NCBI GenBank assembly: GCA_017302655.1
Contig: JAFLDE010000002.1
Location: 21,993-85,992 of the forward strand
Origin: Burkholderiales bacterium
GTDB taxonomy: Bacteria; Pseudomonadota; Gammaproteobacteria; Burkholderiales; Burkholderiaceae_C
Length of the DNA stretch: 64,000 nt
Direction: 5' to 3'
The translations under genes and the position numbers were made by a program. Below, piece after piece: positions 44,692 through 62,095 of this stretch; the stretch's first letter is position 1; every line of letters begins with the position of its first letter. The notes beneath the pieces are model-generated. The model worked only from the letters and a program-made list of their open reading frames with translations. It ran no database searches and was not told the origin of the DNA.

Positions 44692-45153
44692 TCAGCTCTT
44701 GGCCATGCTCAGGCCTTCGTGCGAGACCACCAAGCTCTCGATGGCGAATTCGTTGCCACTGACCTTGAATTCACTGCTCTGCACCCTGCTGGGCCAGGCA
44801 TCGGCCAGGGTCCAGACCATGACGGCGGCGCCCGACTCGTCGAGCAGGCGGATGGTCAGCGGCTTGCGCTGGATGGTGGTCGTCTTGGCCTCGTTGAACC
44901 AGTCCCAGAACTGGCGCTCGCCCTTGAAGAGGCCGCGCTTCAGGGTCACGTCGCCGAACTTCTTCACGCCGGGCATCTTGAGCACCGAGAACTGCGGGCT
45001 GTTGCCCGCTCGGTATTCGATGGGCTGAGCCTCCATGCCGAGGCCGGAGACCTCCTGGAAACGCATCTCGGCGCCGCCCCACTGGACATGGAACTGGAAC
45101 TTGGGCTGCGGCCAGACGGCTTCACCGGAGCTGGGGGCAGATGGATCAGGCAT
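44692..45153 (-). CDS. T4-gp19-like tail tube protein (eCIS Afp1/5 type)
   Basis: PKFQFHVQW, FQEVSGL, IEYRAG, KMPG.KKFGDVTLKRG, FWDWFN, W.L.DAWP, AIESLVVSHEGL. Confidence 0.9.
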   Translation of the reverse strand: MPDPSAPSSGEAVWPQPKFQFHVQWGGAEMRFQEVSGLGMEAQPIEYRAGNSPQFSVLKMPGVKKFGDVTLKRGLFKGERQFWDWFNEAKTTTIQRKPLTIRLLDESGAAVMVWTLADAWPSRVQSSEFKVSGNEFAIESLVVSHEGLSMAKS

Positions 45154-45166
45154 GGCGCAACTCCTT

Positions 45167-48766: not shown

Positions 48767-50173
48767 CTAGAACCACCAGGGTGCAGGATGACCGTTGCTG
48801 ACCAGGAATACCTGCTGTCGGTAAAAGCGCTGAATGCTCTGCGCGCCCATGCGGGTACCGCCAAGGCCGGACAGACCGAAGCTCTGCTTTGCGCCCTCAT
48901 GCACAAGCGCGGTGAGCGAGCAGTCGTTGATGGACACCGCGCCCGCCCGCAGGGCAGAGGCCACACGGCGGGCGCGTTCGACATCCGCACTGAAGACGGC
49001 GCCGCTGAGGCCGTACTCGCTGTCGTTGGCCAAATGCAAGGCCTCGGCTTCATCGGCGAACGCCTGCAGGGGAAGGATGGGACCGAAAGTCTCCTCGCGC
49101 ATGACACGCATGCTCGGCTTCACGTCCACCAGCACCGTCGGTTGGCACCAGATGCCGCCGCCGTGTTCAACGAGGCGCCCACCGCACAAGGCGCGGGCAC
49201 CCTGTGCAAAAGCGTCGTCAAGCTGCGCCTGAATCAGCCTTGCCTGAGCCGCTGCAATGACGGGACCGATGTGGCCCTCACGCGGGTCGGACGTGTTCAG
49301 GCCCAAAGCTGCTACCCGCTCGGTCAAGAGCTGGGCAAAGGCTTCAAAGACCGGCTGCTGCACGTAGCAGCGCTCCAGCGACATGCAGCTTTGCCCGGCA
49401 TTGACCATGCTGCCCCAAGCCAGCGATCGCGCGGTGCGTGGCAGGTCGGCGTCGGCAAAGACCAAGGCGGCGTCCTTGCCACCCAGTTCGAGCTGTGCCG
49501 GGATGAAGCGCCGCGCCGCCTGTTCGGCCACCTTGCGGCCGGTGGCCATGCTGCCGGTGAAGGCGATGGTGTCGACGCAGTCGATCAGGGCCTGACCGGT
49601 GGCGCCGGCACCGGTCACGAAGTCGATGGGCAGCTCGGACGTCAAGCCTGCCAAGCTGGCGCGCAGGGGTTCGACGAAGCGCGGCGTGATCTCGCTCGGC
49701 TTGACGAGCACCGCGCAGCCCGCCATCAAGGCCGGGATGGCGTCGATCAGGGAAAGCAGCAGCGGGAAGTTCCAAGGGCTGATGACGCCGACCAGCGGAT
49801 AGGGCTGCATGCCCTGCTCGATCGTGAGGAAGGGAATCGAGGCACGTTGCTGGCTCGGCGCCAGCAGGCCTGGCCCCTGGGAAGCCCAGCGCGCCAGGGA
49901 TGCGGCGCAGGCCTGGATCTCCAGCAAGCCTTCTTGCCAGCGGCCGGTGTCGGCCAGCAAGGCTTCGGCCAGAGCAGACTCCTGGCCCAGCAAGCGCTCG
50001 CGCCAGGCCAGCAGGGCCTCGGCTCGCTGTGGCGCCGTCCGCGCCGCCCACGCAGGCTGGCGTGCACGCAGTTGCGCGGCCACTGCAGCCACTTCTGTGG
50101 CGTCGTGCACAGGCATGAAGTGGTCCAGCCGGCCTGTGCGCGGATTGCGCGTGTTCGGCAGCGCCTCAGTCAC
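48767..50173 (-). CDS. NAD(P)+-dependent aldehyde dehydrogenase
   Basis: ISPWNFP, KPSEITP, FTGS, LELGGKD, GQSC, EETFGP. GTG start 50173 overlaps the upstream stop. Confidence 0.93.
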   Translation of the reverse strand: MTEALPNTRNPRTGRLDHFMPVHDATEVAAVAAQLRARQPAWAARTAPQRAEALLAWRERLLGQESALAEALLADTGRWQEGLLEIQACAASLARWASQGPGLLAPSQQRASIPFLTIEQGMQPYPLVGVISPWNFPLLLSLIDAIPALMAGCAVLVKPSEITPRFVEPLRASLAGLTSELPIDFVTGAGATGQALIDCVDTIAFTGSMATGRKVAEQAARRFIPAQLELGGKDAALVFADADLPRTARSLAWGSMVNAGQSCMSLERCYVQQPVFEAFAQLLTERVAALGLNTSDPREGHIGPVIAAAQARLIQAQLDDAFAQGARALCGGRLVEHGGGIWCQPTVLVDVKPSMRVMREETFGPILPLQAFADEAEALHLANDSEYGLSGAVFSADVERARRVASALRAGAVSINDCSLTALVHEGAKQSFGLSGLGGTRMGAQSIQRFYRQQVFLVSNGHPAPWWF

Positions 50174-51206
50174 GGCGAAGCACACCCCGCGTCAGCAGCT
50201 TCTCGATGCTGGCCCGCTGCTGCTCCAGGAAATGGGCGCGACCGGGAACCTGCAACTCACCATCCTTGAGCATGCTGTTCGGGCTGACCACGCTGTCCGC
50301 GTACTGCGCGGCGAACAACTCCAGGCGCTGGCGCGCCAGCAGATTGCCCATGCCCGGCTTGAGCCGCTGGCGGCGCAGGGCTGCGATGTCGATGACGGCG
50401 TGGGCGACCATGCTCTCACCATAGCCGGCCTCGGCCCGCACCTCGCCCAGGGGGTCGACGATCTTGCTCATGCCGTCCACGGACTCGCCGGGGATGTCCA
50501 CGTCGACGATGCCCGCCGAGTTGGCGCTCACCACCCAGCAACTGTTCTCGTAGGCACGCGCGCGCTTGGCCACATCCTTGGGGGTGAAGCGCGGGCTGGC
50601 CACTTCGGAACTGCTGTGCAGCAGCACCTCGGCACCGCGAAGCGCTAGGCCACGAGCAATCTCCGGGTAGAGGATTTCCTCGGACGCGACGCAGCCCAGG
50701 CGGCCGAGCGGCGTGTCAGCGACCGGGAAGACACCTTCGAGCCCGTACAGCTCCAGGTACCGGTCCCAGACATCGTGCGGCGTGGGCGCAAACAGCGAGA
50801 CCAGGCGGCGGTAGCGCAGCACGCAGGCGCCTTGGTCGTCCAGCACGAAGCTGGTCTGGAAGTAGAGACCGGGAAAGTGAGCGTCGGTCTCGTACACATT
50901 GCCACTGAGGTAGACACCCGCCTGCCTTGCGACCTGGCCGAGCAGCTCGTACTCGACCCCGTCGGGCGCCAACGCCGCCTTGCTCGCCCAAGCCGGCAAC
51001 GCGTCACCCAGCGGGTAGCCGCTCAGGAAGTACTCGGGCAGCACCACCAACTTCAGGTCGGGGCCGATGAAGGCCTTGGAGCCCAGCACCTGACGCCCCA
51101 CGCGTTCGATGTTGGCGCGCATGCGCTCCCGCGCCTCGGCGTCGCTGACACAACGGTTGACGGCGTGACACCGGGTTTGCAACGCGAGGGCGGTATAGGC
51201 GCTCAT
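50166..51206 (-). CDS. Nitrilase / carbon-nitrogen hydrolase fold protein with atypical triad
   Basis: VVLPEYFL; YFQTSFVLD; YRRL; GCVASEEILYPE.ARGLALRGAEVL; RARAYEN..WVVSAN. Confidence 0.82.
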   Translation of the reverse strand: MSAYTALALQTRCHAVNRCVSDAEARERMRANIERVGRQVLGSKAFIGPDLKLVVLPEYFLSGYPLGDALPAWASKAALAPDGVEYELLGQVARQAGVYLSGNVYETDAHFPGLYFQTSFVLDDQGACVLRYRRLVSLFAPTPHDVWDRYLELYGLEGVFPVADTPLGRLGCVASEEILYPEIARGLALRGAEVLLHSSSEVASPRFTPKDVAKRARAYENSCWVVSANSAGIVDVDIPGESVDGMSKIVDPLGEVRAEAGYGESMVAHAVIDIAALRRQRLKPGMGNLLARQRLELFAAQYADSVVSPNSMLKDGELQVPGRAHFLEQQRASIEKLLTRGVLRRD

Positions 51207-51209
51207 GGT

Positions 51210-51890
51210 TCAGAAGGGCTTGACGGCGCCAAAGTAGGCGACGGTGGCAATGGACACCCAGTACACATAAGCGATGTTGCGGCCGAAGCGGATGCTCTTG
51301 TCCAGCTTGGCCTCCACGTCGGCGTTGGGGCCCTGTGCCAGCAGGCGGAACATGGCCGTCCACTCCCGCATGATGAAGCGCAGCTTCAGGCCAATGATCA
51401 GCGTCCAGGCGTACACGAGCATCTTGGCCGCGTACCAACGCGTGCCCGGATCGGCCACCAGCGGGCCATGCCCCATCAAGGACGCGATGCTGACGAGGAA
51501 CAGCAGCGGGATCAGCACGAAGCGCACGCTCTCGTCGACCTTCGTCAGGCGAACGCCGGTGTCGGTCTCACGCTTGATGAAGGCGCCCCAGCACAGGCCC
51601 AGCCACAGCGCCGTGAGCACCCACATGCCAGTTAGCCAAGCGCCGCCCAGGGGCTGCAGATTCCACAAATGCCCCATGTGCAGGCCCAGGGGCAGCAGCA
51701 GGATGATGCCGGTGCGGGCCAGGATGTCGATGCGGTAGGCCGTCTCCATGTGGCGACGGCGCTCGTCCAGCGGCAGCTTGCGGTTGATGACGTTGTAGGA
51801 GGTCTGGAATACCCCCCACTCGCCACCCAACCAATAGACCATGCAGATGATGTGCAGCCAGCGCAGCACGGCGAGCTCGTTGAAGTCCAT
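51210..51890 (-). CDS. Uncharacterised multi-pass membrane protein
   Basis: About 6 hydrophobic helices (WLHIICMVYWLGG...), GAGAG RBS-like sequence, first gene after the leftward sigma54 promoter. Confidence 0.8.
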   Translation of the reverse strand: MDFNELAVLRWLHIICMVYWLGGEWGVFQTSYNVINRKLPLDERRRHMETAYRIDILARTGIILLLPLGLHMGHLWNLQPLGGAWLTGMWVLTALWLGLCWGAFIKRETDTGVRLTKVDESVRFVLIPLLFLVSIASLMGHGPLVADPGTRWYAAKMLVYAWTLIIGLKLRFIMREWTAMFRLLAQGPNADVEAKLDKSIRFGRNIAYVYWVSIATVAYFGAVKPF

Positions 51891-51922
51891 GTGGGCTCTC
51901 GATTCAGCGGATGCCGTGCGGC

Positions 51923-51938
51923 TGCAAGACCTGTGCCA
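51923..51938 (-). promoter_or_regulatory. Sigma54 -24/-12 promoter (leftward operon)
   Basis: Minus strand TGGCAC-AGGTC-TTGCA; GG-N10-GC spacing exact; 32 nt upstream of ATG 51890. Confidence 0.85.
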
Positions 51939-51957
51939 TTCGGTCGGCGGCCCTCGA

Positions 51958-52006
51958 TGTTTCAACATGGAACGCATCGGGCAGCATCTGAAACCGACTT
52001 GAAACA
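51958..52006. promoter_or_regulatory. Candidate enhancer (UAS) for a PrpR-like sigma54 activator
   Basis: Imperfect palindrome TGTTTCA-ACA-TGGAACG (51958-51974) plus TGAAAC (51989) and TGAAACA (52000) half-sites between the two sigma54 promoters. Confidence 0.5.
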
Positions 52007-52025
52007 CTCGGCGCAGCCCATCACT

Positions 52026-52041
52026 TGGCACGCCGATTGCA
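52026..52041 (+). promoter_or_regulatory. Sigma54 -24/-12 promoter (rightward operon)
   Basis: TGGCAC-GCCGA-TTGCA; GG-N10-GC exact; AGGAG RBS and ATG 52080 follow. Confidence 0.88.
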
Positions 52042-52079
52042 CCAAGCCCTGAGCTCACCAACGCTCAGGAGACTCAGGC

Positions 52080-52967
52080 ATGCGCCCCCATGTGGAATTG
52101 ATCGACGAGAAGGACCTCATCTGGCACGTGGCCGAGTTGCCACATGGCGTGGGCGCGGCACGCCAGCGCCATCTGAACTACTGTGAAGAGAAGGGTGAGG
52201 CCTCGCTGTCCGTCGAGTTCACCAGCGACTGGAGCCGCCCGGCGGGCTGCCATGCGGCCCAGACCGAGTGGTTCGTCCTCGAAGGCGAACTCACGCTGGG
52301 CGAGCAGGCCATGACCAAGGACGACTACTTCATGGCGCCGGCCGGTGTGCTCACGCCGGCGCTGCATGTGAAGGCAGGCACCCGCGTGCTGCTCTTCCGC
52401 GAGTTCGGCGACTGGGGCTTCACGCCCGCCAGTCAGAGCGAAAAGGAGGGCGAATTGGTGGTCATGCGCGCCAGCCAGATGGCTTGGTTCGACATCACCG
52501 ATCCGCACAACGGCAGCCCGATGGACTTCAGCCGCGGCGGCACCCCGGTGCCAGGCCTGAGCATCAAGCTGCTGTATCACAACAAGCAGACGGGCTTCTA
52601 CACCCGGCTGATTCGCGCCAAGGCCGACTGGGTGGAGCATCCGCTGGCCCACCACCCCTGCTATGAAGAGGCCTACTGCCTGGATGGCAGCTTTGAGTAC
52701 AACTACGGCTCGATGTGGCCGGGCACCTACTTCTTCCGGCCGGCCGGCGTGCGTCACGGCGACTTCAAGAGCGGGCCCACCGGCACCACCTGGCTGCTGC
52801 GATGCGACGGCCGCCTGGTGGACTGGTACACCGAAGGCGCCCGCGTGGAAATGCAGGGCAAGGCGCTCAACTGGGGCCCGGAGTACCCCGGCACCGAGCC
52901 GCCCGTGCTGCTGCAACCGACCCGTAGCCGCTCGATCGGTCCGATGAAAGACCCGGCCTACCAGTGA
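52080..52967 (+). CDS. Bicupin protein (DUF4437 / ChrR-like)
   Basis: Two cupin barrels; EWFVLEGEL in the first, HHPCYEEAYCLDG and YFFRPAGVRHG in the second. Confidence 0.75.
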   Translation: MRPHVELIDEKDLIWHVAELPHGVGAARQRHLNYCEEKGEASLSVEFTSDWSRPAGCHAAQTEWFVLEGELTLGEQAMTKDDYFMAPAGVLTPALHVKAGTRVLLFREFGDWGFTPASQSEKEGELVVMRASQMAWFDITDPHNGSPMDFSRGGTPVPGLSIKLLYHNKQTGFYTRLIRAKADWVEHPLAHHPCYEEAYCLDGSFEYNYGSMWPGTYFFRPAGVRHGDFKSGPTGTTWLLRCDGRLVDWYTEGARVEMQGKALNWGPEYPGTEPPVLLQPTRSRSIGPMKDPAYQ

Positions 52968-53734
52968 TGCAGCCCAGTCACCGCGATGCACTGGGCTGGC
53001 GCCGCGTCTTCGCGGTGTTCGGCCCCAGCACCAACACCATCGTCGAGCCGGAGTTCGCCGCCATGCGACCGGCCGGCGTCACCAACCAGTACCGCGACCT
53101 GTACATCGAGAACGCCAAGGCGCTCAGCGACGAAGCCTTCATGGCCGGTGCCGAGTTGATCGACGCCGCCGTGGAGCAAGCGCTGCGCACCGCGATGACG
53201 GCCGAGCCCGACTACTACGTGATGGGTGTGTCGGCCATCAGCTTCATCGGCGGCGCGCCCGCCTGCGAGCGCCTGCTGCAGCGCATTCGCGACCTCACCG
53301 GCAAGGACGTGAGCGTCGGCTCGATGAGCTGCGTGGAGGCCATGAAGGCCTACGGCAACATCCGGCGCATCGCCGTGCTCTCGCCCTATTACCCGGCGGC
53401 CAACGCGCATGTGAAGCACTTCTTCAGCGACCACGGCTTGAGCACCGTGCGCGACCTGCCGCTTCGCTGCACCAGCTGGACGAACATCAGCCGCGTCACC
53501 GAGCGGCAGATCGCCGACGCGCTCAAGCAGCTCGACGGCGACGACATCGACGCCATCGTGCAGGTGGGCACCAACCTGCAGATGGCCCGCATGGCGCCCT
53601 ACGCCGAAGCCTTCCTGGGCAAGCCGGTGATCGCCATCAACACCGCCACCTACTGGCACGCGCTGCGCCGCAATGGCATCCGCGACGCCGTCGACGGCTT
53701 CGGCTCCCTGCTGCAACACATGGACCTGGCCTGA
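52967..53734 (+). CDS. Asp/Glu racemase superfamily protein (maleate isomerase / arylmalonate decarboxylase-like)
   Basis: GPSTNTIVEPEF, IAVLSPY, AIVQVGTNL, GKPVIAINTATYWHALR; TGATG overlap. Confidence 0.85.
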   Translation: MQPSHRDALGWRRVFAVFGPSTNTIVEPEFAAMRPAGVTNQYRDLYIENAKALSDEAFMAGAELIDAAVEQALRTAMTAEPDYYVMGVSAISFIGGAPACERLLQRIRDLTGKDVSVGSMSCVEAMKAYGNIRRIAVLSPYYPAANAHVKHFFSDHGLSTVRDLPLRCTSWTNISRVTERQIADALKQLDGDDIDAIVQVGTNLQMARMAPYAEAFLGKPVIAINTATYWHALRRNGIRDAVDGFGSLLQHMDLA

Positions 53735-53743
53735 CATGAATCG

Positions 53744-53877
53744 GCCCCTCGCCCAAACTCGCCGCGCTGAACGCGGGCGAGTCCGGTCGGTCCCCCAAGG
53801 GGACGCGCCTGCACGCGGCATGGAGCCGCAAGCAGGCGCAGGCGGGCCGGCTTGGGGCGGCCCGGCGCTCGGCCCGC
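53744..53877 (+). repeat. Palindromic repeat copy C (intergenic, longest)
   Basis: GCCCCTCGCCC...TCGGTCCCCCAAGGGGACGC + extra hairpin + GCGGGCCG-GCTTGGGGCGGCCCGGCGCT-CGGCCCGC. Confidence 0.8.
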
Positions 53878-53931
53878 AACGCCCCGTTTTCATGCGTCGC
53901 GGGTGCCGCGAATCTGCAATGGACAACTGAC

Positions 53932-54591
53932 ATGGAACAGAGCAACAAGACGGCACGCGAGATCTGGAACGAGCTGAAAGCCAACCCGACGCGCGCGCGC
54001 TTCGGCTTTGGCCTGAAGGCCGCGCTGGTCAACATCGACTTCCAGTGTGCCTACACAAGGGTTGATGAATTCAAGACCGCGTACGAAACCGATCCGCAGC
54101 AGATCCAGTACGTGAACCAGCTCGCGACTGCCTTCCGCGCCAAGGGCTGGCCGGTGGTCTGGACGCATGTTGCATATGCCGACTCGGGGGAGGACTGCGG
54201 CGTCTGGGGCACGCGGACGAACACGCCGGACTCGCTGCAGAACATCAAGCATGGCTCTCGCCGAGCCCAGTTCGACGAGCGCTGCGACATCCGGCACGGC
54301 CTCGACATGGTCTATTGCAAGCGAATGCCCTCGGTGTTCTTCGAAACGCCCCTGCACTCGCTCTTGACCTTTCATCGGGTGGACACCGTGGTGCTGACCG
54401 GCGGGTCCACCAGCGGCTGCGTGCGCGCCAGCGCGGTGGACTCCCTTTCGCGCAGCTTCCGCACCATCGTTCCTGAGCAGTGCGTGGCCGACAAGCACGA
54501 GAGCTATCACTTCGCCAACCTGACCGACATGCAGCTGAAGTACGCCGACGTGCTTGACGTTCAGCAGGTGCTGGACTGGCTGAAGGCCTGA
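53932..54591 (+). CDS. Isochorismatase-family cysteine amidohydrolase (NicF / N-carbamoylsarcosine amidase-like)
   Basis: NIDFQ (Asp), KRMPSVFFET (Lys), GGSTSGCVRASAVD (Cys). Confidence 0.9.
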   Translation: MEQSNKTAREIWNELKANPTRARFGFGLKAALVNIDFQCAYTRVDEFKTAYETDPQQIQYVNQLATAFRAKGWPVVWTHVAYADSGEDCGVWGTRTNTPDSLQNIKHGSRRAQFDERCDIRHGLDMVYCKRMPSVFFETPLHSLLTFHRVDTVVLTGGSTSGCVRASAVDSLSRSFRTIVPEQCVADKHESYHFANLTDMQLKYADVLDVQQVLDWLKA

Positions 54592-54595
54592 GCCC

Positions 54596-55480
54596 ATGAA
54601 AGCCGATCCAGGCGTCTACGCGCATCGGCCGTATCGGGGCCGACCCAAGATCGAATGGCCGGGTGGGAAGCGCGTCGCCTTCTGGGTAGCGCCCAACATC
54701 GAGTTCTACGAACTGCAGCCGCCCGCCAACCCGCATCGCGCGGCCTGGCCGCATCCCTACCCGGCCGTGCCCGGCTACAGCATCCGGGACTGGGGCAACC
54801 GTGTCGGCCACCAGCGTCAGATGGCCCTGCTCGACAAGTACGGTATCCGAGGCTCGATCTCGTTGAGCGCTGCCCTGTGCGAGCACCACCCCGAGATCAT
54901 TGCCATGTGCAAGGAGCGGGACTGGGAGTTCTTCAGCCACGGCATCTACAACACGCGCTACGTGTACGGCATGAGCGAGGCCGAGGAGCGGGCGATGCTG
55001 CTGGACTCGATGGACACCATCGAGCGTGCTTGTGGTCGCCGCCCGGCCGGATACCTGGCGCCGGCGCTTTCGCACAGCGAGGTCACGCTCGACCTGTTCG
55101 CCGAACTAGGCGGGCTCTACACCTGCGACCTGTTCCACGACGACCAGCCGACGGCCGTGGACGTGCGCGGCGGGCAGCGCTTCTGCTCCGTGCCGTACTC
55201 GCTGGAATTGAACGACACGATTGCCTACGTGGTGAACAAGGTCGAGCCGCGTCGCTACGGCCAGATGATCTGTGACGCCTTCGACCAGCTGCGCCTGGAA
55301 GGCGGCACGGTGATGTGCATCCCCACGCACAACTACCAGGTGGCGAATCCGCATCGGCTGGCTGCCTTTGAGCGGGCGCTGGACTACATCACGTCGCATG
55401 ACGATGTTTGGGTCACGACGGGGCGTGAGATTGCTGAGTGGTACTTGGCTTCGTCTGCCGAAGCTGGAGAGTTGAAGTGA
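54596..55480 (+). CDS. Polysaccharide-deacetylase-fold hydrolase (PuuE allantoinase-like) 1
   Basis: WPGGKRVAFWVAPNIEFY, DWGNRVG, WEFFSHG, GYLAPA, DDQP, VPYSLELND, CDAFDQL. Confidence 0.88.
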   Translation: MKADPGVYAHRPYRGRPKIEWPGGKRVAFWVAPNIEFYELQPPANPHRAAWPHPYPAVPGYSIRDWGNRVGHQRQMALLDKYGIRGSISLSAALCEHHPEIIAMCKERDWEFFSHGIYNTRYVYGMSEAEERAMLLDSMDTIERACGRRPAGYLAPALSHSEVTLDLFAELGGLYTCDLFHDDQPTAVDVRGGQRFCSVPYSLELNDTIAYVVNKVEPRRYGQMICDAFDQLRLEGGTVMCIPTHNYQVANPHRLAAFERALDYITSHDDVWVTTGREIAEWYLASSAEAGELK

Positions 55481-55538
55481 GAGCCCTTGGGGCGCTTCGC
55501 CCCCAAATCCCCGCGGGCTCTTGCATAGGGAGCACTCC

Positions 55539-56435
55539 ATGAGCCAACCGCCCTACCCCATGCGCCGCTACGGCATGGACCACGAGCGCTACACGTGGTC
55601 CATGCTCCAGGACCGGCCGCCCATCCAATGGCCCGGCGGCAAGCCGCTGGCGGTCTGGATCAACGTTTCACTCCAGCACTTCCCGCTGAACCCGGCGGCC
55701 AAGGTCAAGCTGCCCGGCAGCATGACCATGCCGTATCCCGACCTGCGCCACTTCACGCTTCGCGACCACGGCAACCGGGTCGGCATCTGGCGATTGCTGT
55801 CGGAGCTGGACCAGGCCCAACTCCCCGCCAGCTTCGCCATGAACGCCGAGCTGGTGCTGCGCGCGCCCGAGCTGCTGGCCGAGATCCGCCAGCGCGGCGC
55901 CGAGCTCATCGGCCACAGCTGGAACATGGACACCCCGCATGCGGGCTCCCTGGACAACGAACGAGCGCTCATCCAGCGCAGCCTGGAGCATCTTGGCGGC
56001 GGCATCAGCACCTGGCTCAGCCCCGGCCGCCTGCAAACCGCGCACACCCCCGAGTTGCTCCGCGAACAGGGCATCACCGCCTGCGCCGACTGGGTGAACG
56101 ACGAACTGCCCTACCGCTTTCACACGCAGCAGGGCGATTTGTGGAACCTGCCCCTGCCCACCGAGACCGAGGATCGCTTCGTCATCCTCGACAACCTGCA
56201 CAGCGAAGCCAGCTGGGCCGAGCAGGTCATCGACGCCTTCGAGTTCCAGCTCGCCGAGGCCCGGGCCGCTCATGCCGGGCGGCTCTTCAGCCTCTCGCTG
56301 CATCCCTGGGTGACCGGCCAGGCGCACCGCGTCAAGCACCTGCGCCGCGTGCTCGCGCACATCGCCGCGGCGCGTGCTGATTGCTGGTTCTGCATGCCGC
56401 GCGATCTCGTCCAGCACATGGAATCCCTCGCGTGA
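55539..56435 (+). CDS. Polysaccharide-deacetylase-fold hydrolase (PuuE allantoinase-like) 2
   Basis: WPGGKPLAVWIN, RDHGNRVGIWRL, ELIGHSW, WLSPG, DWVNDELP, LSLHPWVTGQAHR; GGGAG RBS before ATG 55539. Confidence 0.88.
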   Translation: MSQPPYPMRRYGMDHERYTWSMLQDRPPIQWPGGKPLAVWINVSLQHFPLNPAAKVKLPGSMTMPYPDLRHFTLRDHGNRVGIWRLLSELDQAQLPASFAMNAELVLRAPELLAEIRQRGAELIGHSWNMDTPHAGSLDNERALIQRSLEHLGGGISTWLSPGRLQTAHTPELLREQGITACADWVNDELPYRFHTQQGDLWNLPLPTETEDRFVILDNLHSEASWAEQVIDAFEFQLAEARAAHAGRLFSLSLHPWVTGQAHRVKHLRRVLAHIAAARADCWFCMPRDLVQHMESLA

Positions 56436-57337
56436 TCCTCGTCTCCGAAGTCGGTCCGCGCGACGGACTGCAGTCCATTTCCACCGTGATGCCCACGGCG
56501 GCCAAGTTCGCGTGGATCGACGCCCTGGTTGCTGCAGGCGTTCGCGAGATCGAAGTCGGCTCCTTCGTGCCGGCCAAGCTCTTGCCGCAGCTGGCCGACA
56601 CCGCCGACGTGGTCGCGCATGCACGCCGGCATGCAGGCCTCACCGTGGCCGTGCTCGTGCCCAATGCGAAGGGCGCCGAGGCGGCGCTTGCTGCGGGTGC
56701 CCACAAGCTCACCCTGCCGCTGTCCTGCAGCGAGACGCATAGCCTGAAGAACCTGCGCAAGACCCACGCCCAGGTGCTGGACGAAGCACGTGCCATCGCC
56801 GCCCTGATCGCTGCGCAGCCCATCGGTCAACGCCCGCACTTCGAGGGCAGCCTGTCCACCGCCTTCGGTTGCACGCTGGAAGGCAGCGTGCCCGAAGCCC
56901 AGGTGCTGCGTTTGGGCGAGGCGCTGCTGAAAGCCGGCTGCGACGAGGTCGGCCTAGCCGACACCACCGGCTACGCCAACCCCACCCAGGTGCGCCGCCT
57001 GATCCGCCAGCTCTGGGACGCACTGGGGCAAGACAAGCTCACAGGCATCCACCTGCACAACACGCGTGGGCTGGGCCTGGCCAATGCCTTGGCCGCGCTG
57101 GACACGGGCCTGAGCACCTTCGACAGCAGCCAGGCCGGCCTGGGCGGCTGCCCCTTCGCGCCGGGCGCCAGCGGCAACATCGTCACCGAGGACCTGGTCT
57201 TCATGCTGCAGAGCATGGGCCTGGACACCGGCATCGACTTCGACCGCCTCATGCAGGCGCGCCAGGTGCTGGCGGCCGCGCTTCCCGGTGAGCCGCTCTA
57301 CGGCATGACCCCGCAGGCAGGACTTCCCAAGCCATGA
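56432..57337 (+). CDS. HMG-CoA lyase family (DRE-TIM) acyl-CoA lyase
   Basis: EVGPRDGLQ, IEVGSFV, LADTTG, HLHNTRGLG, GGCPFAPGASGNIVTED; GTGA overlap. Confidence 0.92.
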   Translation: MILVSEVGPRDGLQSISTVMPTAAKFAWIDALVAAGVREIEVGSFVPAKLLPQLADTADVVAHARRHAGLTVAVLVPNAKGAEAALAAGAHKLTLPLSCSETHSLKNLRKTHAQVLDEARAIAALIAAQPIGQRPHFEGSLSTAFGCTLEGSVPEAQVLRLGEALLKAGCDEVGLADTTGYANPTQVRRLIRQLWDALGQDKLTGIHLHNTRGLGLANALAALDTGLSTFDSSQAGLGGCPFAPGASGNIVTEDLVFMLQSMGLDTGIDFDRLMQARQVLAAALPGEPLYGMTPQAGLPKP

Positions 57338-58479
57338 CACCCTTGCAAGGCCTCAAGGTCATCGAGTTCACCCACATGGTGATGGGCCCGAGCATGGGCC
57401 TCATCCTGGCCGATCTCGGGGCCGAGGTGCTGAAGATCGAACCGCCGGGCGGCGACAACACGCGGCGCCTGACCGGCTCGGGCGCCGGCTACTTCGCCAT
57501 GTACAACCGCAACAAGGCCAGCCTGCAATTGGACCTGAAGACCGAAGCCGGCAAGGCGGCGGCGCTGGCCCTGATCGACGGCGCCGACATCGTCATCGAG
57601 AACTTCCGTCCCGGCGGCATGGCCGCGCAGGGCCTCGGGTACGAGCAGTTGTCGGCGCGCAATTCCGGCCTCATCTACTGCAGCGGCAAGGGCTTTCTGT
57701 CCGGTCCCTACGCCCACCGCACCGCGCTCGACGAAGTGGCGCAAATGATGGGCGGGCTGGCCTACATGACCGGTCTGCCTGAGCGCCCGATGCGGGCCGG
57801 CGCGTCGGTGATCGACGTGGGGGGCGCGATGTTCGGCGTCATCGGCATCCTGGCCGCGCTGCACGAGCGCCAGCGCACCGGCCGTGGCCAGGCCATCACC
57901 ACCTCGCTGTATGAGACCTGCGCCTTCTTCGTCGGCCAGCACATGGCGCAAACCGCAGCCACCGGCGAAGCGCCACCGCCGATGTCGGTGCGCCGGTCCG
58001 CCTGGGCGGTGTACGACGTGTTTGACTGCGCCGACCCCGGCGAGAAGGTCTTCGTGGGCGTGGTCAGCGACACGCAGTGGCGCGTGTTCTGCGAGGCCTT
58101 CGCGCTGCCCGAGCTGGCCGCCGATGCCAGCCTGGCGCAGAACAACGAGCGTGTGCGACAGCGCGAGCGCATCCTGCCGCTCATCCAGGCACGCTTCGCT
58201 CAGCTGACCAAGGCCGAGCTGATGGCCAAGCTGGAACACAGCGGCCTGCCCTTTGCCCCGGTGGCCAAGCCGGCGCAACTGTTCGACGACCCGCAGCTCC
58301 GGGCCGGCGGCCTGCTGCCCATCACCCTGCCGGGCGGCCAGCGCACCGCGCTGCCGGCACTGCCGCTGGAGATGAACGGCCAGCGTGGGCAGCTTCGCCA
58401 CGACCTGCCCGCCCCAGGCGACGGCGGCGACGCCTGGCTGCGCGCGGCCGGCATCGACCCCGACTCGGTGCGTTGCTGA
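57334..58479 (+). CDS. Family III (CaiB/BaiF) CoA-transferase
   Basis: GPSMGLILADLGAEVLKIEPPGGD, NRNKASL.LDLK, ENFRPG, ALDEVAQ, LHERQRTGRGQ. Confidence 0.93.
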   Translation: MTPLQGLKVIEFTHMVMGPSMGLILADLGAEVLKIEPPGGDNTRRLTGSGAGYFAMYNRNKASLQLDLKTEAGKAAALALIDGADIVIENFRPGGMAAQGLGYEQLSARNSGLIYCSGKGFLSGPYAHRTALDEVAQMMGGLAYMTGLPERPMRAGASVIDVGGAMFGVIGILAALHERQRTGRGQAITTSLYETCAFFVGQHMAQTAATGEAPPPMSVRRSAWAVYDVFDCADPGEKVFVGVVSDTQWRVFCEAFALPELAADASLAQNNERVRQRERILPLIQARFAQLTKAELMAKLEHSGLPFAPVAKPAQLFDDPQLRAGGLLPITLPGGQRTALPALPLEMNGQRGQLRHDLPAPGDGGDAWLRAAGIDPDSVRC

Positions 58480-59870
58480 TGGTGGCGCCGCAGAGCCTGT
58501 TCGACAAGCTCTGGCAGGGCCGGCGGGTGGCCAGCCTGCCCGGCGGCAGCGACCTGCTGCATATCGACCGCGTGATGCTGCACGAACGCACCGGCGGCGT
58601 GGCATTGGCCGCGTTGGCATCACGCGGCCTGAAGCCGCGCCGGCCCCGCCAGGCCTTCGCCACCTTCGACCACATCGTCGACACCTTTCCGGGCCGGGGG
58701 GACCAGACCCTGATGCCCACCGGCCAGGCCTTCATCACCACCACGCGACGCGAGGCACGGGCCGCCGGCATCCAACTCATCGACCTGCCCGACCCCCGCC
58801 AGGGCATCGTGCACGTCATCTCGCCGGAACTGGGCATCGTGCTGCCCGGCGCCACGCTGGTCTGTCCGGACAGCCACACCTGCACGCAGGGCGCTTTTGG
58901 CGCGCTGGCCTGGGGCATCGGCTCCAGCGAAGCCGAGCACGCGTTGGCCACTGGTGCCTTGCGTGTGCGCCGACCGCCCAGCATGCGCGTGTCCTTCAGC
59001 GGCCGCCTGCCCAAGGGCAGCACGGCCAAGGACATGGCGCTGGCGCTGATAGCCCGCCACGGCGCCGGCGGTGGCCAGCGCTGCGCCATCGAGTTCGCCG
59101 GCGAGGCGGTTCGCGCGCTCGGCATCGAGGCGCGGCAGACCCTGTGCAATCTCGCCGTCGAATTCAGTGCCTGGGGCGCCTGCATCGCGCCGGATGACAC
59201 CGTCTTCGGCGCACTGCACGGCAAGGCCTTCGCCCCTCAAGGTGCCGCCTGGGAAGCCGCCCTGCCGCATTGGCGCCGCCTGGCCAGCGACGCGGACGCG
59301 TCCTTTGACCACGAACTGAGCCTGGACGTGAGCCGCCTGGCTCCGCAGTTGAGCTGGGGCACCAGCCCTGGCCATGGGGGCGACATCGACGCAGCCGTGC
59401 CAGCGCCACGTGACGACAGCGAACGGGCCGCCCTGGACTACATGGGCATCGAGCCCGGCCGCCCCCTGCTCGGCCTGCCCATCCAGGCCGCTTTCATCGG
59501 CTCCTGCACCAATGCCCGCCTGAGCGACCTGCGTGCCGCCGCCGCCCTGCTTCGCGGTCGGCGCATCGCGCCGGGCGTGCGTGCGCTGTGCGTGCCGGGC
59601 TCGGGCAGCGTCAAGCGCGCGGCCGAAGCCGAGGGGCTGCACGAGGTCTTCCAGGCCGCGGGTTTCGAGTGGCGCGAGGCTGGCTGCTCGCTGTGCTTCC
59701 ATGCCGGCGGCGAGCGCTTCGAAGCGCAGTGGCGCGTGGCCTCCACCACCAACCGCAACTTCGAAGGGCGCCAAGGGCCTGGTGTGCGCACGCACCTGGC
59801 CAGCCCCATCACCGTGGCGGCCAGCGCACTGGCGGGCTGTCTGGCAGATCCCCGCCCCCTGCTGCCATGA
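58479..59870 (+). CDS. LeuC-like [4Fe-4S] hydro-lyase large subunit
   Basis: GIVHVISPE, CPDSHTCTQGAFG, GIGSSE, FIGSCTNAR, GCSLC, STTNRNFEGRQG; TGATG overlap. Confidence 0.92.
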   Translation: MVAPQSLFDKLWQGRRVASLPGGSDLLHIDRVMLHERTGGVALAALASRGLKPRRPRQAFATFDHIVDTFPGRGDQTLMPTGQAFITTTRREARAAGIQLIDLPDPRQGIVHVISPELGIVLPGATLVCPDSHTCTQGAFGALAWGIGSSEAEHALATGALRVRRPPSMRVSFSGRLPKGSTAKDMALALIARHGAGGGQRCAIEFAGEAVRALGIEARQTLCNLAVEFSAWGACIAPDDTVFGALHGKAFAPQGAAWEAALPHWRRLASDADASFDHELSLDVSRLAPQLSWGTSPGHGGDIDAAVPAPRDDSERAALDYMGIEPGRPLLGLPIQAAFIGSCTNARLSDLRAAAALLRGRRIAPGVRALCVPGSGSVKRAAEAEGLHEVFQAAGFEWREAGCSLCFHAGGERFEAQWRVASTTNRNFEGRQGPGVRTHLASPITVAASALAGCLADPRPLLP

Positions 59871-60454
59871 ACCCGCCCTTCCACCAGCACGAGGGCCTGG
59901 CCGTGGGCCTGCTGCGCGACCACATCGACACCGACGCCATCATCCCGTCGCGCGAAATGAAGGGTGTGGGCAAGACCGGGCTGGCCGAAGGTCTGTTCGC
60001 CAACTGGCGCTACCGCGACCCGGCCACGCGCGAGCCCGAGCCCGGCTTCGTGCTCAACCAGCATCCGCAGGCGAGCATCCTGCTGGCCGGTCGCAACTTT
60101 GGCTGCGGCTCCTCGCGAGAACACGCCGTCTGGGCGCTGAAGGAATGGGGCATCCGCGTGGTCATCGCACCCAGCTTCGGCGCGATCTTTTTCGACAACT
60201 GCATCCGCAACGGCCTGCTGCCCCTGGTGCTCACCGCGCCGCTGGCCACGCCCCAGCGCCTTCGCATCGACCTGGACGCGCTCACCGTGCAGGAAGCCGA
60301 CGGCAGCCTGCACCGTTTCAGCCTGGACGACGAGCCGCGCGACCTGCTGCGCAGCGGCCTGGACCCGGTGGCCCTGACCCTGGCCCAACAGGGCGATGCC
60401 CTGGCCGCGTTCGAAGCCCATGACCGCCAGCAGCAACCCTGGCTCTACCTGTGA
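59867..60454 (+). CDS. LeuD-like hydro-lyase small subunit
   Basis: IDTDAIIP, NFGCGSSREHAVWAL, APSFGAIFFDNCIRNGLLP. Confidence 0.92.
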   Translation: MNPPFHQHEGLAVGLLRDHIDTDAIIPSREMKGVGKTGLAEGLFANWRYRDPATREPEPGFVLNQHPQASILLAGRNFGCGSSREHAVWALKEWGIRVVIAPSFGAIFFDNCIRNGLLPLVLTAPLATPQRLRIDLDALTVQEADGSLHRFSLDDEPRDLLRSGLDPVALTLAQQGDALAAFEAHDRQQQPWLYL

Positions 60455-61305
60455 CTGCCCTCGCCCCCGGCTTGAATCGCCCGCACATCGAGTTCCTGCA
60501 AGCCCAGCACCTGCCCTGGCGTCGCCTGCCGCCTGGCGCAGCGCGGCCCGATGCGCAGTACAAGTTCCTGAGCCGCGACGCCGCCACAGGCGCCTGCAGC
60601 TGCCTGATCCGCTACCCCAAGGGCTGGATGCGCGAGGGCGACGAAACCCTGGCCGTGGCCGAGACGGTCTACGTGCTCGAAGGATGTTTCGAGGTGGACG
60701 GCCACCCAATGAGGGCTGATCACTTCGGCCACTGGCCCGCCGGTTGTGCCCGCCAAAGCCTGAAGGCGCCCGAGGGCGCGGTGGTGCTGAGCTTCTTCGA
60801 TGCTGCCCCTGAGTTCGGCCCTGTCGACCCCGCCGCACAGCCCCTGCTGACCGACGTGCTGCACATGGCGTGGGACATGAAGCTCAACGACCCCAAGCTG
60901 GCGCACCTGGGTTTGGCTCGCAAGAACCTGCTGGCCGGCGCGGATGGTTCGCGCACCTTTCTCTCCATGATGCTTCCGCACGCCGAGCCGCTGGGCTCAC
61001 GTGGACCGCGCGAGAGCCATCCGGTCGTCGAGGAGTGCTACGTGCTGGCCGGTTCGCTGGTCGGTCCGCACGGCGAGATGCAGGCAGGGGCCTACTTCTG
61101 GCGCCCGCCCGGCATTCCCCATGGCCCCTTCGGCACCCGCTGGGGCTGCGTGGCGCTGATTCGCTTCCTGGGTGGCAACCATGTGAACGTGTGGAGCGAA
61201 GACGAAGCCCCGTTTCGCTTCGACGCTCCCTACGCGCCGGTGCTGCCCGCTGAGTTGGAAGGGCTGCGCGCCTTGGGGGCGGTGGAAGGCGCGCCAAGAT
61301 ATTGA
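60451..61305 (+). CDS. Second bicupin protein (DUF4437 / ChrR-like)
   Basis: SCLIRYPKGW, ETVYVLEG, SHPVVEECYVLAG, YFWRPPGIPHGPF; paralogous to 52080-52967. Confidence 0.75.
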   Translation: MTALAPGLNRPHIEFLQAQHLPWRRLPPGAARPDAQYKFLSRDAATGACSCLIRYPKGWMREGDETLAVAETVYVLEGCFEVDGHPMRADHFGHWPAGCARQSLKAPEGAVVLSFFDAAPEFGPVDPAAQPLLTDVLHMAWDMKLNDPKLAHLGLARKNLLAGADGSRTFLSMMLPHAEPLGSRGPRESHPVVEECYVLAGSLVGPHGEMQAGAYFWRPPGIPHGPFGTRWGCVALIRFLGGNHVNVWSEDEAPFRFDAPYAPVLPAELEGLRALGAVEGAPRY

Positions 61306-61348: not shown

Positions 61349-62095
61349 GTGCGTCTCCTCTTCACCCTGCTGCTGGCCGCGGCCTTGAGCCCCACCTGGG
61401 CTTGCTCGCGCATGCTCGTGGTGCCCTTGGCCCAAGCGAATCGGGAGACCTCCGGCTATGACTTCGCCGAGGTGCTCCGCGAGCAGGGCCTCAAGCGCGG
61501 CTGTCGTTTCGAGTTCCCGGTGGTGCCCAGGGCCAGGCTTCAGATGATGTTGAGCACGGGCCAGGCGGACCTGATGATTCCCGCCACACGCACTGCCGAA
61601 CGCGACGCCCTCGCCCGCTTCGTGCCGCTGCTGTCGATGCGCCCGGAATTGGCGTGGGTGCCTGGCCGCGGCGCCATGCCCGAAAGCCTGGCGGCTCTCA
61701 CAGCGCAAGGGGCCGTACGAGGCGCGTTCGTGCGCGGCCAGTCCTGGGGACCCAGCTACGAAGCCATGATCGACACGCTGCGCCGCGCGAACCGGGTCGA
61801 TCTGGTGGCCGATTTGGCCACCGTGCTGCGCATGTTGGCAGCCGAGCGCGCCGAGTTCACGATCTCGATGCCCGGCATCCTAAAAGCCGCGGCGGCGCAA
61901 GATGCCTCGTTGACCGCGGTGGTGAACCAACTGCAGTTCAAACCCCTGCCGGATCTGGCCCCTGTAGAGACCGGCATTTACCTTTCGCGGCGCAGCCTCA
62001 GTGAAGCTGAACAGGATGCGCTTGCGGCTTGGTTGAAGGAGATCTTCGACCCGGCCACGCTCCAGCGCGTAAGGGGAGGCAGAGCGGGCCAATGA
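61349..62095 (+). CDS. Periplasmic substrate-binding protein (family 3-like)
   Basis: Signal peptide; VPRARLQMML.TGQADL, RTAERD, RGQSWG, MLAAERAEF. Confidence 0.75.
   Translation: MRLLFTLLLAAALSPTWACSRMLVVPLAQANRETSGYDFAEVLREQGLKRGCRFEFPVVPRARLQMMLSTGQADLMIPATRTAERDALARFVPLLSMRPELAWVPGRGAMPESLAALTAQGAVRGAFVRGQSWGPSYEAMIDTLRRANRVDLVADLATVLRMLAAERAEFTISMPGILKAAAAQDASLTAVVNQLQFKPLPDLAPVETGIYLSRRSLSEAEQDALAAWLKEIFDPATLQRVRGGRAGQ

Follow-up and report, generated by a model that had tools for sequence, protein, structure and literature searches.

The stretch of DNA analyzed here (the window) comprises 64,000 nucleotides of a freshwater Burkholderiales bacterium (C112:21993-85992, from an assembly of 4.43 Mb that is 99.96% complete) and holds the central two-thirds of a catabolic island of approximately 25 kb. 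By analogy with known systems, this island may import pyrrole-ring fragments of tetrapyrrole pigments and mineralize them by an imide route under sigma54 control, a reading that we consider evenly balanced. The general logic, in which a cyclic amide or imide would be converted to an amic acid, then to an alkyl-maleate and finally cleaved in CoA-dependent steps encoded within one sigma54 regulon, is probable. Derivation of the substrate from tetrapyrroles falls a little short of even, and the wider proposal, that the island and its relatives constitute a missing bacterial lower pathway in which pigments or their photo-oxidation products are imported, cut to maleimides and fully mineralized, is put forward tentatively. 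The preliminary description of this DNA, which had proposed a divergent sigma54-driven island for the degradation of a nitrogen-containing compound, is confirmed as an observation and supported in part as an interpretation. New here are the physical link of an RCCR/Rieske module to CoA-transferase, lyase and LeuCD genes, an uptake operon encoding CpeT and TonB-type proteins, and a regulon with three promoters.

Protein families were assigned using Pfam and NCBIfam profile scans of the open reading frames (ORFs) in the window, and reading frames were checked using GC content at third codon positions (GC3), which supports the frames of the island genes. Sigma54 promoters were scanned for with the consensus TGGCAC-N5-TTGCW, and the expected number of sites was taken from shuffled sequence. 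A scan of a genome collection with cupA, the first gene of the rightward operon, gave 15 loci onto which all island proteins were then mapped; further neighborhoods (Microbulbifer, Denitratisoma, Haliea and uncultured Gammaproteobacteria) were obtained by exact-protein look-up. Two samples of 400 genomes each were used, one from the same class and one from the same family. As orthologs of the PuuE-like protein PuuE1 were found in only 3 of the 400 class genomes, too few for statistics, the class sample serves for base rates only. A scan for intrinsic terminators gave no more hits than chance.

A predicted divergent sigma54-dependent regulon

The regulatory features of the island that lie in the window are as follows:

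51923..51938, minus strand: promoter P1 (-24/-12) of the leftward operon, perfect match TGGCACAGGTCTTGCA, ending 32 nucleotides 5' of the ATG at 51890
51958..52008, no strand assigned: enhancer-like repeats TGTTTCAAC, TGGAACG, TGAAAC and TTGAAACA, of GTTTCA/TGAAAC type, between P1 and P2
52026..52041, plus strand: promoter P2 of the rightward operon, perfect match TGGCACGCCGATTGCA, 38 nucleotides 5' of the ATG at 52080
62143..64000, minus strand, running past the window end: sigma54 activator with the Pfam architecture PrpR_N-PAS-AAA+-HTH_8

P1 and P2 are the sole two perfect matches to the consensus in the window, where 0.15 would be expected. They stand back to back on opposite strands, 88 nucleotides apart (span 51923-52041), and drive an operon of three genes to the left and one of 10-11 genes to the right. 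In the orthologous intergenic regions of a Comamonadaceae metagenome-assembled genome (MAG; locus L008) and a Betaproteobacteria MAG (L002), P2 is kept in both, P1 is kept in L008 and nearly kept in L002, and the motif cluster between the promoters recurs in both. The divergent sigma54-driven unit of the preliminary description was thus borne out by two perfect promoters conserved in two other genomes. The repeats are presumed to be the binding site of the PrpR-like activator.

The activator has a full length of 659 amino acids; its gene starts at contig position 86111, and the first 40 codons fall outside the window. It shows a Sigma54_activat match (E-value: 5.4e-69) in addition to HTH_8 and carries an intact GAFTGS loop and Walker A motif (GETGTGKE). 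Its gene is divergent from a third sigma54 site, TGGCAAGCCAATTGCT, which has one mismatch and lies outside the window, 5' of a TonB receptor gene; TGTTTCAAC and TGGAACG (read as CGTTCCA) precede this third promoter as well. An activator ortholog (62% identical) closes the cluster in L008, and rpoN is present in the genome (Sigma54_DBD on contig C9). Because of the promoters, their common motifs, their conservation, the activator and rpoN, we group the three operons with the activator in a single regulon, an inference from sequence features. The signal for the activator to switch on the three promoters would be a polycarboxylate intermediate; in PrpR, an N-domain of this type senses 2-methylcitrate.

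The arrangement resembles PrpR/sigma54 control of prpBCDE in its PrpR_N, AAA+ and HTH_8 domains, its divergent sigma54 promoters and its enhancer half-sites similar to GTTTCA/TGAAAC. It differs in that the island activator has an extra PAS domain and governs three operons of unrelated content. An end of the island at 61305, as first described, does not hold: it continues through a binding-protein gene, the activator gene and a third operon outside the window. Because genes for a TonB-dependent receptor and an MFS transporter belong to that operon, the earlier statement that no transporter is present is true of the window only.

The rightward operon

P2 is followed by these features:

52080..52967, plus strand: DUF4437 bicupin cupA (Pfam DUF4437, E-value: 2.3e-33)
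52964..53734, plus strand: racemase-fold protein of the arylmalonate-decarboxylase/maleate-isomerase fold (Pfam Amdase, E-value: 3.8e-16)
53735..53931, plus strand: GC-rich structured spacer of 197 nucleotides (predicted fold -108.9 kcal/mol, several hairpins)
53932..54591, plus strand: isochorismatase-family cysteine amidohydrolase (Pfam Isochorismatase, E-value: 1e-26)
54596..55480, plus strand: PuuE-like protein 1 (PuuE1), deacetylase fold (Pfam Polysacc_deac_1)
55539..56435, plus strand: PuuE-like protein 2 (PuuE2; Polysacc_deac_1), always beside PuuE1
56432..57337, plus strand: HMG-CoA-lyase-family lyase (HMGL-like, E-value: 4.9e-49; PRK05692, 297 bits against a cut-off of 246)
57334..58479, plus strand: family III CoA-transferase (Pfam CoA_transf_3, E-value: 4.6e-111)
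58479..59870, plus strand: LeuC-like large subunit of an aconitase-family hydratase (PRK12466, 635.8 bits against a cut-off of 531)
59867..60454, plus strand: LeuD-like small subunit (PRK01641, 196 bits against a cut-off of 167)
60451..61305, plus strand: second bicupin cupB (Pfam Cupin_7, E-value: 8.7e-13), 29% identical to cupA
61349..62095, plus strand: secreted (signal-peptide) protein with a weak SBP_bac_3 match (Pfam E-value: 7.4e-4, under the cut-off)

All enzyme families named in the preliminary description were found by Pfam, but the gene order given there was not: the 3' end runs lyase, CoA-transferase, LeuC, LeuD, cupin.

The isochorismatase-family protein keeps the Asp-Lys-Cys triad. 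Its closest solved relatives are 4l07/4l08, 3ot4/3uao and N-carbamoylsarcosine amidase, the first two of which we take to be the maleamate amidases Ami and NicF from nicotine and nicotinate pathways. We propose, from these similarities, that it is a (possibly substituted) maleamate amidase that would release ammonia. The two proteins encoded next to it have their best PDB matches in 3cl6, 1z7a and 3s6o. They score 111 and 77 bits with the PuuE model TIGR03212 (cut-off: 424.6) and about 47-84 bits against PuuE itself. Glu-His-Trp is the PuuE triad, and enzymes of the PuuE clade hydrolyze cyclic imides (PMC11424739). PuuE1 keeps the Glu and His with Asn in place of Trp, while PuuE2 has Met at the Trp position and has also lost the catalytic Glu. 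PuuE1 has more than 3000 relatives, the best 120 of which are 76-90% identical. On sequence grounds, we propose PuuE1 as a candidate ring-opening enzyme for a cyclic imide or lactam; PuuE2 may be its partner subunit. PuuE allantoinase and the PuuE-clade imide hydrolases BpIH and AfIH likewise have the deacetylase fold without the metal triad, and cyclic amide or imide hydrolysis is documented for them (PMC11424739). The island pair differs in always standing in tandem with an isochorismatase gene, in scoring under the family cut-off and in its altered triad.

The pair matches PuuE models best, and PuuE is itself an allantoinase, so a hydantoin or ureide route has to be weighed at this point. 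In such a route, the PuuE-like proteins would open a ring similar to that of a 5-substituted hydantoin or of allantoin, the isochorismatase would act as an N-carbamoyl amidase, and the bicupins and racemase-fold protein would resemble ureidoglycine aminohydrolase and hydantoin racemase, respectively. N-carbamoylsarcosine amidase is the second-best PDB match of the isochorismatase, the top fold matches of cupA include ureidoglycine aminohydrolases, and the Pelomonas and Denitratisoma clusters are flanked by hydantoinase B genes. We nevertheless consider this route very unlikely: the PuuE scores are far under 424.6 and the triad is altered, the racemase-fold protein is without the catalytic Cys, the core contains nothing that would remove the second nitrogen of an amino-acid product, and both the branched-acid module and the bilin-related neighbors described below would go unexplained.

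The branched-acid module has the order HMGL-CoAT-LeuC-LeuD with overlapping stop and start codons, so that a family III transferase, an HMGL lyase and a LeuCD hydratase are encoded together. The top PDB matches of the lyase are HMG-CoA lyases, and we propose, from family membership, that it would cleave a 3-substituted citramalyl- or malyl-CoA. The nearest NCBIfam models of the CoA-transferase are succinate-glutarate and succinyl-CoA:mesaconate CoA-transferases (both under cut-off), and its PDB matches include succinate-hydroxymethylglutarate CoA-transferase. The housekeeping LeuCD is encoded elsewhere (contig C119), at 48% identity. Similar enzymes occur in the Chloroflexus 3-hydroxypropionate bi-cycle, which uses a succinyl-CoA:D-citramalate CoA-transferase (family III) and an R-citramalyl-CoA lyase of the HMG-CoA-lyase family, and in nicotinate fermentation, which uses dimethylmaleate hydratase (LeuCD-type, acting on alkyl-maleates) and dimethylmalate lyase. 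The likeness to these modules, which extends to the predicted products (pyruvate and an acyl unit), is at the level of enzyme families; the island module differs in its catabolic role, its tie to carbon-nitrogen hydrolases and its two transferase/lyase pairs.

The upper part of the operon parallels the maleamate branch of nicotinate degradation (NicX-NicD-NicF-NicE, and Ami of Pseudomonas putida S16), as had been suggested. In both, an isochorismatase-family cysteine hydrolase deamidates (in the island, by prediction) a ring-derived amide to an unsaturated C4-type diacid, and an alpha/beta hydrolase gene and an isomerase-fold gene are present. Unlike the nic product, the island diacid would apparently be hydrated by LeuCD and cleaved as a CoA ester rather than isomerized to fumarate, two PuuE-like hydrolases stand in for the deformylase, and the isomerase-fold protein is without both Cys. 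At the positions of AMDase Gly74 and Cys188, this protein has Gly and Gly, as do six orthologs, and the variant spans Burkholderiales to marine Gammaproteobacteria. The racemase/isomerase fold first ascribed to it stands, but Gly at both catalytic Cys positions excludes a NicE-type isomerase. No molybdopterin hydroxylase or flavin monooxygenase was detected in Pfam scans of the ORFs of the window and of the third operon locus (L016), in agreement with the earlier remark that NicX, NicC and a molybdo-hydroxylase are missing, although NicX and NicC were not searched for by sequence.

Conservation of the core in related genomes

In a comparison of cluster co-occurrence, a check proposed earlier, the core recurs in Beta- and Gammaproteobacteria in shuffled order. 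Across the 15 cupA loci, the gene set appears as four blocks: cupA with the racemase-fold gene; isochorismatase-PuuE1-PuuE2-HMGL; CoA-transferase-LeuC-LeuD-cupB; and membrane protein-CN_hydrolase-aldehyde dehydrogenase, the last being the leftward operon. Carriers include Rhodoferax, Ideonella, Rubrivivax, Pelomonas and Pseudorhodoferax, and the core is also found in Microbulbifer bruguierae, Denitratisoma oestradiolicum, Haliea sp. E17 and uncultured Gammaproteobacteria. Pelomonas cellulosilytica P8 and Pseudorhodoferax sp. Leaf274 are among the carriers that can be cultured. The invariant core consists of the isochorismatase-PuuE1-PuuE2 triad (kept in every related locus examined), LeuCD and two pairs of CoA-transferase and HMG-CoA-lyase-like enzymes. 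Entry enzymes are variable (FAD_binding_3, FAD_binding_4, FAD_binding_2 with VOC, molybdopterin hydroxylase, hydantoinase B and AMP-ligase), as are transporters (SSF, MFS and TonB receptors). The core includes neither an aminotransferase nor a deaminase and therefore fits a substrate with a single amide nitrogen.

The shuffling of blocks speaks for a simpler proposal, that the lower module catabolizes free branched unsaturated dicarboxylates (citraconate, dimethylmaleate or maleate/D-malate) and that the carbon-nitrogen hydrolases are a side entry or serve imide detoxification; the island would then be without a single natural nitrogenous substrate. The combination of LeuCD, family III CoA-transferase and HMGL lyase matches the Chloroflexus D-citramalate families at the family level, a tartrate/D-malate dehydrogenase is encoded at the left flank, and the PrpR-type sensor suggests an organic-acid inducer. 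We regard this proposal as improbable for three reasons. First, nearly all genomes examined have the triad linked to the acid module. Second, triad and acid module are under the same sigma54 promoter here. Third, genes for an isochorismatase and a CoA-transferase/lyase pair also stand together in the third operon. Because of the shared promoter and the linkage across genomes, we rejected catabolism of citraconate or itaconate as the sole explanation.

The variable entry enzymes bear on another alternative, a maleamate-type route for an alkyl-substituted pyridine or other monocyclic N-heterocycle. Here, a cupin dioxygenase would stand in for NicX, a PuuE-like enzyme would serve as deformylase and the isochorismatase would be the maleamate amidase, with citraconate-type products passing to the LeuCD/CoA-transferase/lyase module for disposal. 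This route agrees with the nearest relatives of the isochorismatase (the maleamate amidases 4l07/4l08 and 3ot4/3uao). Furthermore, Pelomonas versions of the cluster carry a molybdopterin hydroxylase, an FAD_binding_4 oxidase and hydantoinase B, those of Microbulbifer, Haliea, L006 and L011 carry an FAD_binding_3 monooxygenase of the NicC class, and small-solute transporters (SSF and MFS) are present. However, the racemase-fold protein is without both Cys that NicE needs, and the island of the source genome contains no hydroxylase: homologs of the molybdopterin protein of the relatives lie on other contigs, and nothing in the genome corresponds to their FAD_binding_4 and FAD_binding_3 proteins. 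A maleate or citraconate product would also need no second CoA-transferase/lyase pair, and this route leaves unexplained the CpeT-fold lipoproteins, the TonB receptors and the repeated association with RCCR and a Rieske oxygenase. We thus consider a pyridine-type substrate unlikely.

A paralogous isochorismatase-PuuE-PuuE triad (approximately 59% identical) occurs in another setting at locus L036 (G794:C1:3561000-3580999). Its neighbors are a Dpp-type ABC importer, a flavoprotein of the OYE/2,4-dienoyl-CoA-reductase type, a PrpD/MmgE-family protein, a SnoaL-like protein, an Asp/Glu racemase and a TctC binding protein. The OYE-family ene-reductase in one paralogous context and a lipocalin in another would fit imide-type substrates with a single nitrogen.

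The third operon and a possible link to tetrapyrroles

Beyond the window, the island continues with a third operon and associated genes:

3' of the window end (L016), in order: TonB-dependent receptor, two CpcT/CpeT (PF06206) proteins, secreted DUF1838 protein, second family III CoA-transferase, second HMG-CoA-lyase-family enzyme, second isochorismatase, MFS transporter
C112:89029-90560, outside the window: the two CpeT genes (PF06206, 104 and 146 bits against a cut-off of 21)

These are the only two CpeT-family genes in the genome. Both proteins carry lipoprotein signal peptides, unlike the cytoplasmic lyases of this fold, and the only PDB matches of CpeT2 are the bilin-binding protein CRL (6lix) and the phycocyanobilin lyase CpcT (4o4o). 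The association recurs in relatives: CpeT and TonB receptor genes lie directly 5' of cupA in Ideonella and Rubrivivax MAGs, and CpeT genes are part of the cluster or adjoin it in L003, L004 and L027 (in L027, between LeuC and the second lyase pair). In the L008 genome, CpeT is on a separate short contig, so adjacency is unproven there. A TonB receptor gene and a CpeT1-like gene follow the triad in G465 (same family); as this genome has no PF06206 match, the likeness is probably to the C-terminal part of CpeT1. CpeT occurs in 4 of the 400 class genomes, and one of those four is among the only three with a PuuE1 ortholog.

The second bilin-related family is RCCR (PF06405, ferredoxin-dependent bilin-reductase superfamily), the partner of which is a VanA-type Rieske oxygenase. 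In L027, an RCCR and Rieske pair lies approximately 5 kb from the triad. In L039, RCCR is co-directional with the x334 and x323 ORFs and the CoAT2, HMGL2 and LeuC genes, apparently in one operon, with the Rieske gene divergent upstream. L035 (Haliea) and L038 have the RCCR and Rieske pair with MFS, CN_hydrolase and aldehyde dehydrogenase genes. Microbulbifer has two RCCR genes with two TonB receptors, an aldehyde dehydrogenase, an ICL/PEP-mutase-type lyase and a racemase-fold gene, and no Rieske oxygenase was detected near these two RCCR genes. In total, RCCR was found in five of nine tested non-Burkholderiales genomes with cupA or the core (Microbulbifer, Haliea, Oceanicoccus and both Actinomycetota genomes carrying cupA), plus the L027 contig, compared with a base rate of 1/400 in the class sample. 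Small as these counts are, and uncorrected for phylogeny, coincidence is a poor explanation for the meeting of two independent bilin-related families on one gene set. Of the earlier suggestion of a substituted N-heterocycle or a cyclic imide or amide, the latter part is supported, but the CpeT, TonB and RCCR/Rieske context of the relatives points away from pyridine and towards pyrrole units.

Two conserved ORFs without a Pfam family always follow the bacterial RCCR gene (L027 18720-20710, with equivalents in L035, L038 and L039). One product is similar to alpha/beta hydrolases and has a GHSAGG elbow; the other is a 323-amino acid protein that shares a GTWHG motif with a 194-amino acid neighbor. 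G386 (C21:31471-31851 and C23:33108-33665), the sole RCCR-positive genome of the class sample, is also one of the four CpeT-positive ones and has no PuuE1 ortholog.

In plants, PAO and RCCR act in the breakdown of chlorophyll by the phyllobilin pathway. The clusters of the marine relatives are similar in that lower-pathway genes stand beside, or in an operon with, genes for a Rieske oxygenase, RCCR and an alpha/beta hydrolase, and the substrate class proposed here is the same. The source genome differs in having neither RCCR nor a Rieske oxygenase; for the island itself, the case for tetrapyrroles is therefore built on the CpeT-fold proteins together with the analogy to distant relatives. Relatives of RCCR have been placed in heterotrophs by Rockwell et al. 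2023 (PMC10151467), and a preprint (10.64898/2026.03.19.712979) describes prokaryotic structural homologs of the plant chlorophyll catabolic enzymes up to RCCR, without maleimides, operons or downstream steps. The PAO/RCCR pathway and this preprint stop at linear tetrapyrroles, while the steps proposed for the island lie downstream and no description of them was found in the literature.

The island appears to be horizontally acquired. A PuuE1 ortholog is absent from the three same-genus genomes in the sample, and any relative is found in 12 of the 400 same-family genomes. A phage-type integrase gene (L016 11618-13177; C112:95617-97176) lies directly after the last MFS gene of the island and is followed by a type I restriction R subunit gene. 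No tRNA attachment site was found next to the integrase. The island is thus patchily distributed and probably mobile.

Proposed pathway

The substrates would be chlorophyll catabolites, bilins or their monopyrrolic oxidation products, such as methyl-ethyl- or methyl-vinyl-maleimide and hematinic acid. By analogy with plant PAO/RCCR, the marine clusters would open the chlorin macrocycle and reduce the product, while the Burkholderiales island, without RCCR and Rieske oxygenase, would take in pigment that is already linear or fragmented. In the first step, the TonB receptor and CpeT-fold lipoproteins would capture the pigment or fragment, with the MFS transporter bringing small products inward. 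In the second, oxidative or tailoring steps would yield 3,4-disubstituted cyclic imides; the bicupins, the racemase-fold and nitrilase-fold proteins, the membrane protein and the aldehyde dehydrogenase may act here. In the third, the PuuE-like pair would open the imide to a substituted maleamate, from which, in the fourth, the isochorismatase-type cysteine amidase would free ammonia to give a 2,3-disubstituted maleate. In the fifth, the LeuCD-like hydratase would form a substituted citramalate or malate; a LeuCD-type enzyme hydrates an alkyl-maleate in the case of dimethylmaleate hydratase. In the sixth, the family III CoA-transferase would activate the hydrated product, and in the seventh, the HMGL-family enzyme would carry out a retro-aldol-type cleavage to pyruvate and an acyl-CoA, or to acetyl-CoA and a 2-oxo acid, the acyl-CoA products being butyryl-, propionyl- or glutaryl-type esters. 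Pyrrole rings have two classes of side chain, which would match the presence of two transferase/lyase pairs, two PuuE paralogs and two isochorismatases.

Maleimides and hematinic acid are documented as natural breakdown products of chlorophyll and heme (PMC7318184 and PMC10343206). For imides of this kind, the core enzymes would make up a full route of conventional chemistry. Literature searches for bacterial catabolism of maleimides or hematinic acid, or for this gene set, found no paper. A cyclic imide or amide degraded by an undescribed route, as originally suggested, is supported by the relatives of the isochorismatase and by the imidases of the PuuE family (PMC11424739).

Several observations weigh against a role in pigment breakdown. 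We infer every chemical step from family, context and analogy, and no enzyme was identified that would cut a tetrapyrrole (at its methine bridges) into monopyrroles. RCCR is absent from all Burkholderiales relatives tested, and the source genome encodes no PAO-like Rieske oxygenase in addition to having no RCCR. Members of the CpeT/DUF1001 family occur without a known bilin role, for example rice SSG7. The isochorismatase is nearly as close to N-carbamoylsarcosine amidase as to the maleamate amidases, and both PuuE paralogs depart from the PuuE triad, with neither the score nor the triad of an allantoinase. The co-occurrence counts are small and ignore phylogeny. Finally, cupA may have a more general, self-contained role that does not depend on the other island genes, because in marine genomes it is often solitary with a LysR gene: in L018-L021 (marine Gammaproteobacteria), cupA orthologs (63-68% identical) often stand alone beside a divergent LysR gene.

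Other genes of the rightward and leftward operons

The cupA protein has 732 homologs and is approximately 65% identical across Beta- and Gammaproteobacteria. Residues H187, H191, H192, E196, E197 and H226 are invariant, with a His/Glu metal site in the C-terminal barrel. The AF2 model (pLDDT 82) has the uncharacterized protein 2qdr as its top PDB match (Foldseek), followed by ureidoglycine aminohydrolases, ChrR and quercetinase. No function could be assigned from structure, as the matches mix 2qdr, aminohydrolases, the anti-sigma factor ChrR, quercetinase and oxalate decarboxylase, and cupA neighborhoods were uninformative as a functional guide in the marine genomes with a solitary cupA; one of these has a racemase-fold gene alongside. 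In island-type clusters, the racemase-fold gene always adjoins cupA in fixed order. EutA (ectoine), arylmalonate decarboxylase and maleate isomerase were rejected as identities of its product, given scores far under the cut-offs and the absence of the catalytic Cys. The spacer at 53735-53931 could represent a REP-like element, or else a site for mRNA processing or stability; a 37-nucleotide piece of it recurs at 18667-18703 of the window and shorter pieces recur on other contigs. Orthologs of cupB come after LeuD in Pelomonas, and no ortholog of the secreted protein at 61349..62095 was seen in the related clusters examined.

The leftward operon and its flank contain the following genes:

51210..51890, minus strand: polytopic membrane protein of 226 amino acids, first gene of the operon
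50166..51206, minus strand: nitrilase-superfamily protein (Pfam CN_hydrolase, E-value: 1.1e-29)
48767..50185, minus strand: NAD(P)-dependent aldehyde dehydrogenase, similar to succinate-semialdehyde dehydrogenase (Pfam Aldedh, E-value: 9e-104)
47785..48672, minus strand: alpha/beta-fold hydrolase (Pfam Abhydrolase_1, E-value: 1.6e-24), 95 nucleotides 3' of the aldehyde dehydrogenase gene
46682..47782, minus strand: tartrate/D-malate dehydrogenase, LeuB family (TIGR02089, 525.9 bits against a cut-off of 470.4)

The start codon of the membrane-protein gene was read at 51890 and not at 52061, as first given. The protein has no Pfam match even at an E-value of 5; its orthologs (58-85% identity) travel with the cluster in Burkholderiales, Denitratisoma and L027, and one of them gives a faint, non-significant UPF0093/SirB hint. 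Assignment of a family likewise failed for the DUF1838 partners and several small conserved ORFs (no significant Pfam match at an E-value of 5). The nitrilase fold reported for the second protein is present, but the Lys and Cys of the catalytic triad are not: when aligned to aliphatic amidase 2uxy, Glu-Arg-Ser replaces Glu-Lys-Cys (Lys to Arg, Cys to Ser). As Glu-Arg-Ser is kept in orthologs from four genomes, the variant is selected rather than a product of decay. The best NCBIfam match of the aldehyde dehydrogenase is PRK09407 (under cut-off), and its orthologs come after the CN_hydrolase gene in L008, L025 and L037.

Membership of the alpha/beta hydrolase gene in the leftward operon is uncertain; the Denitratisoma cluster likewise holds an Abhydrolase_1 gene. 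The tartrate/D-malate dehydrogenase gene, which abuts it on the same strand, is a possible tail of this operon. Its start was placed near 47782 because the listed ORF overlaps the upstream gene, and it was not found beside the cluster in the relatives examined. Directly 3' of it on the same strand, at 44692-46651, are genes for a sheath (494 amino acids) and a tube protein (153 amino acids; TIGR02241 above cut-off) of contractile-injection type, with no further injection-system genes nearby.

Biological significance

Chlorophyll is among the most abundant pigments, and heme and phycobilins are widespread. To our knowledge, the known biochemistry of these pigments stops at linear tetrapyrroles, and monopyrrolic maleimides and hematinic acid have been described solely as end products of chemical breakdown. 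The island offers an experimental handle in its one activator and three consensus sigma54 promoters, which are usable as reporters. Even with another substrate, the isochorismatase and tandem PuuE-like triad (with thousands of highly similar public copies) would represent new enzymology, as would the Cys-less racemase-fold protein and the Glu-Arg-Ser nitrilase-fold protein. A conserved gene set that opens pyrrole-derived rings would supply missing mineralization steps together with new imidase, amidase and alkyl-maleate hydratase activities. If the proposed role is true, it would explain the fate of the pyrrole nitrogen and carbon of the most abundant pigments in the biosphere past the linear-tetrapyrrole stage.

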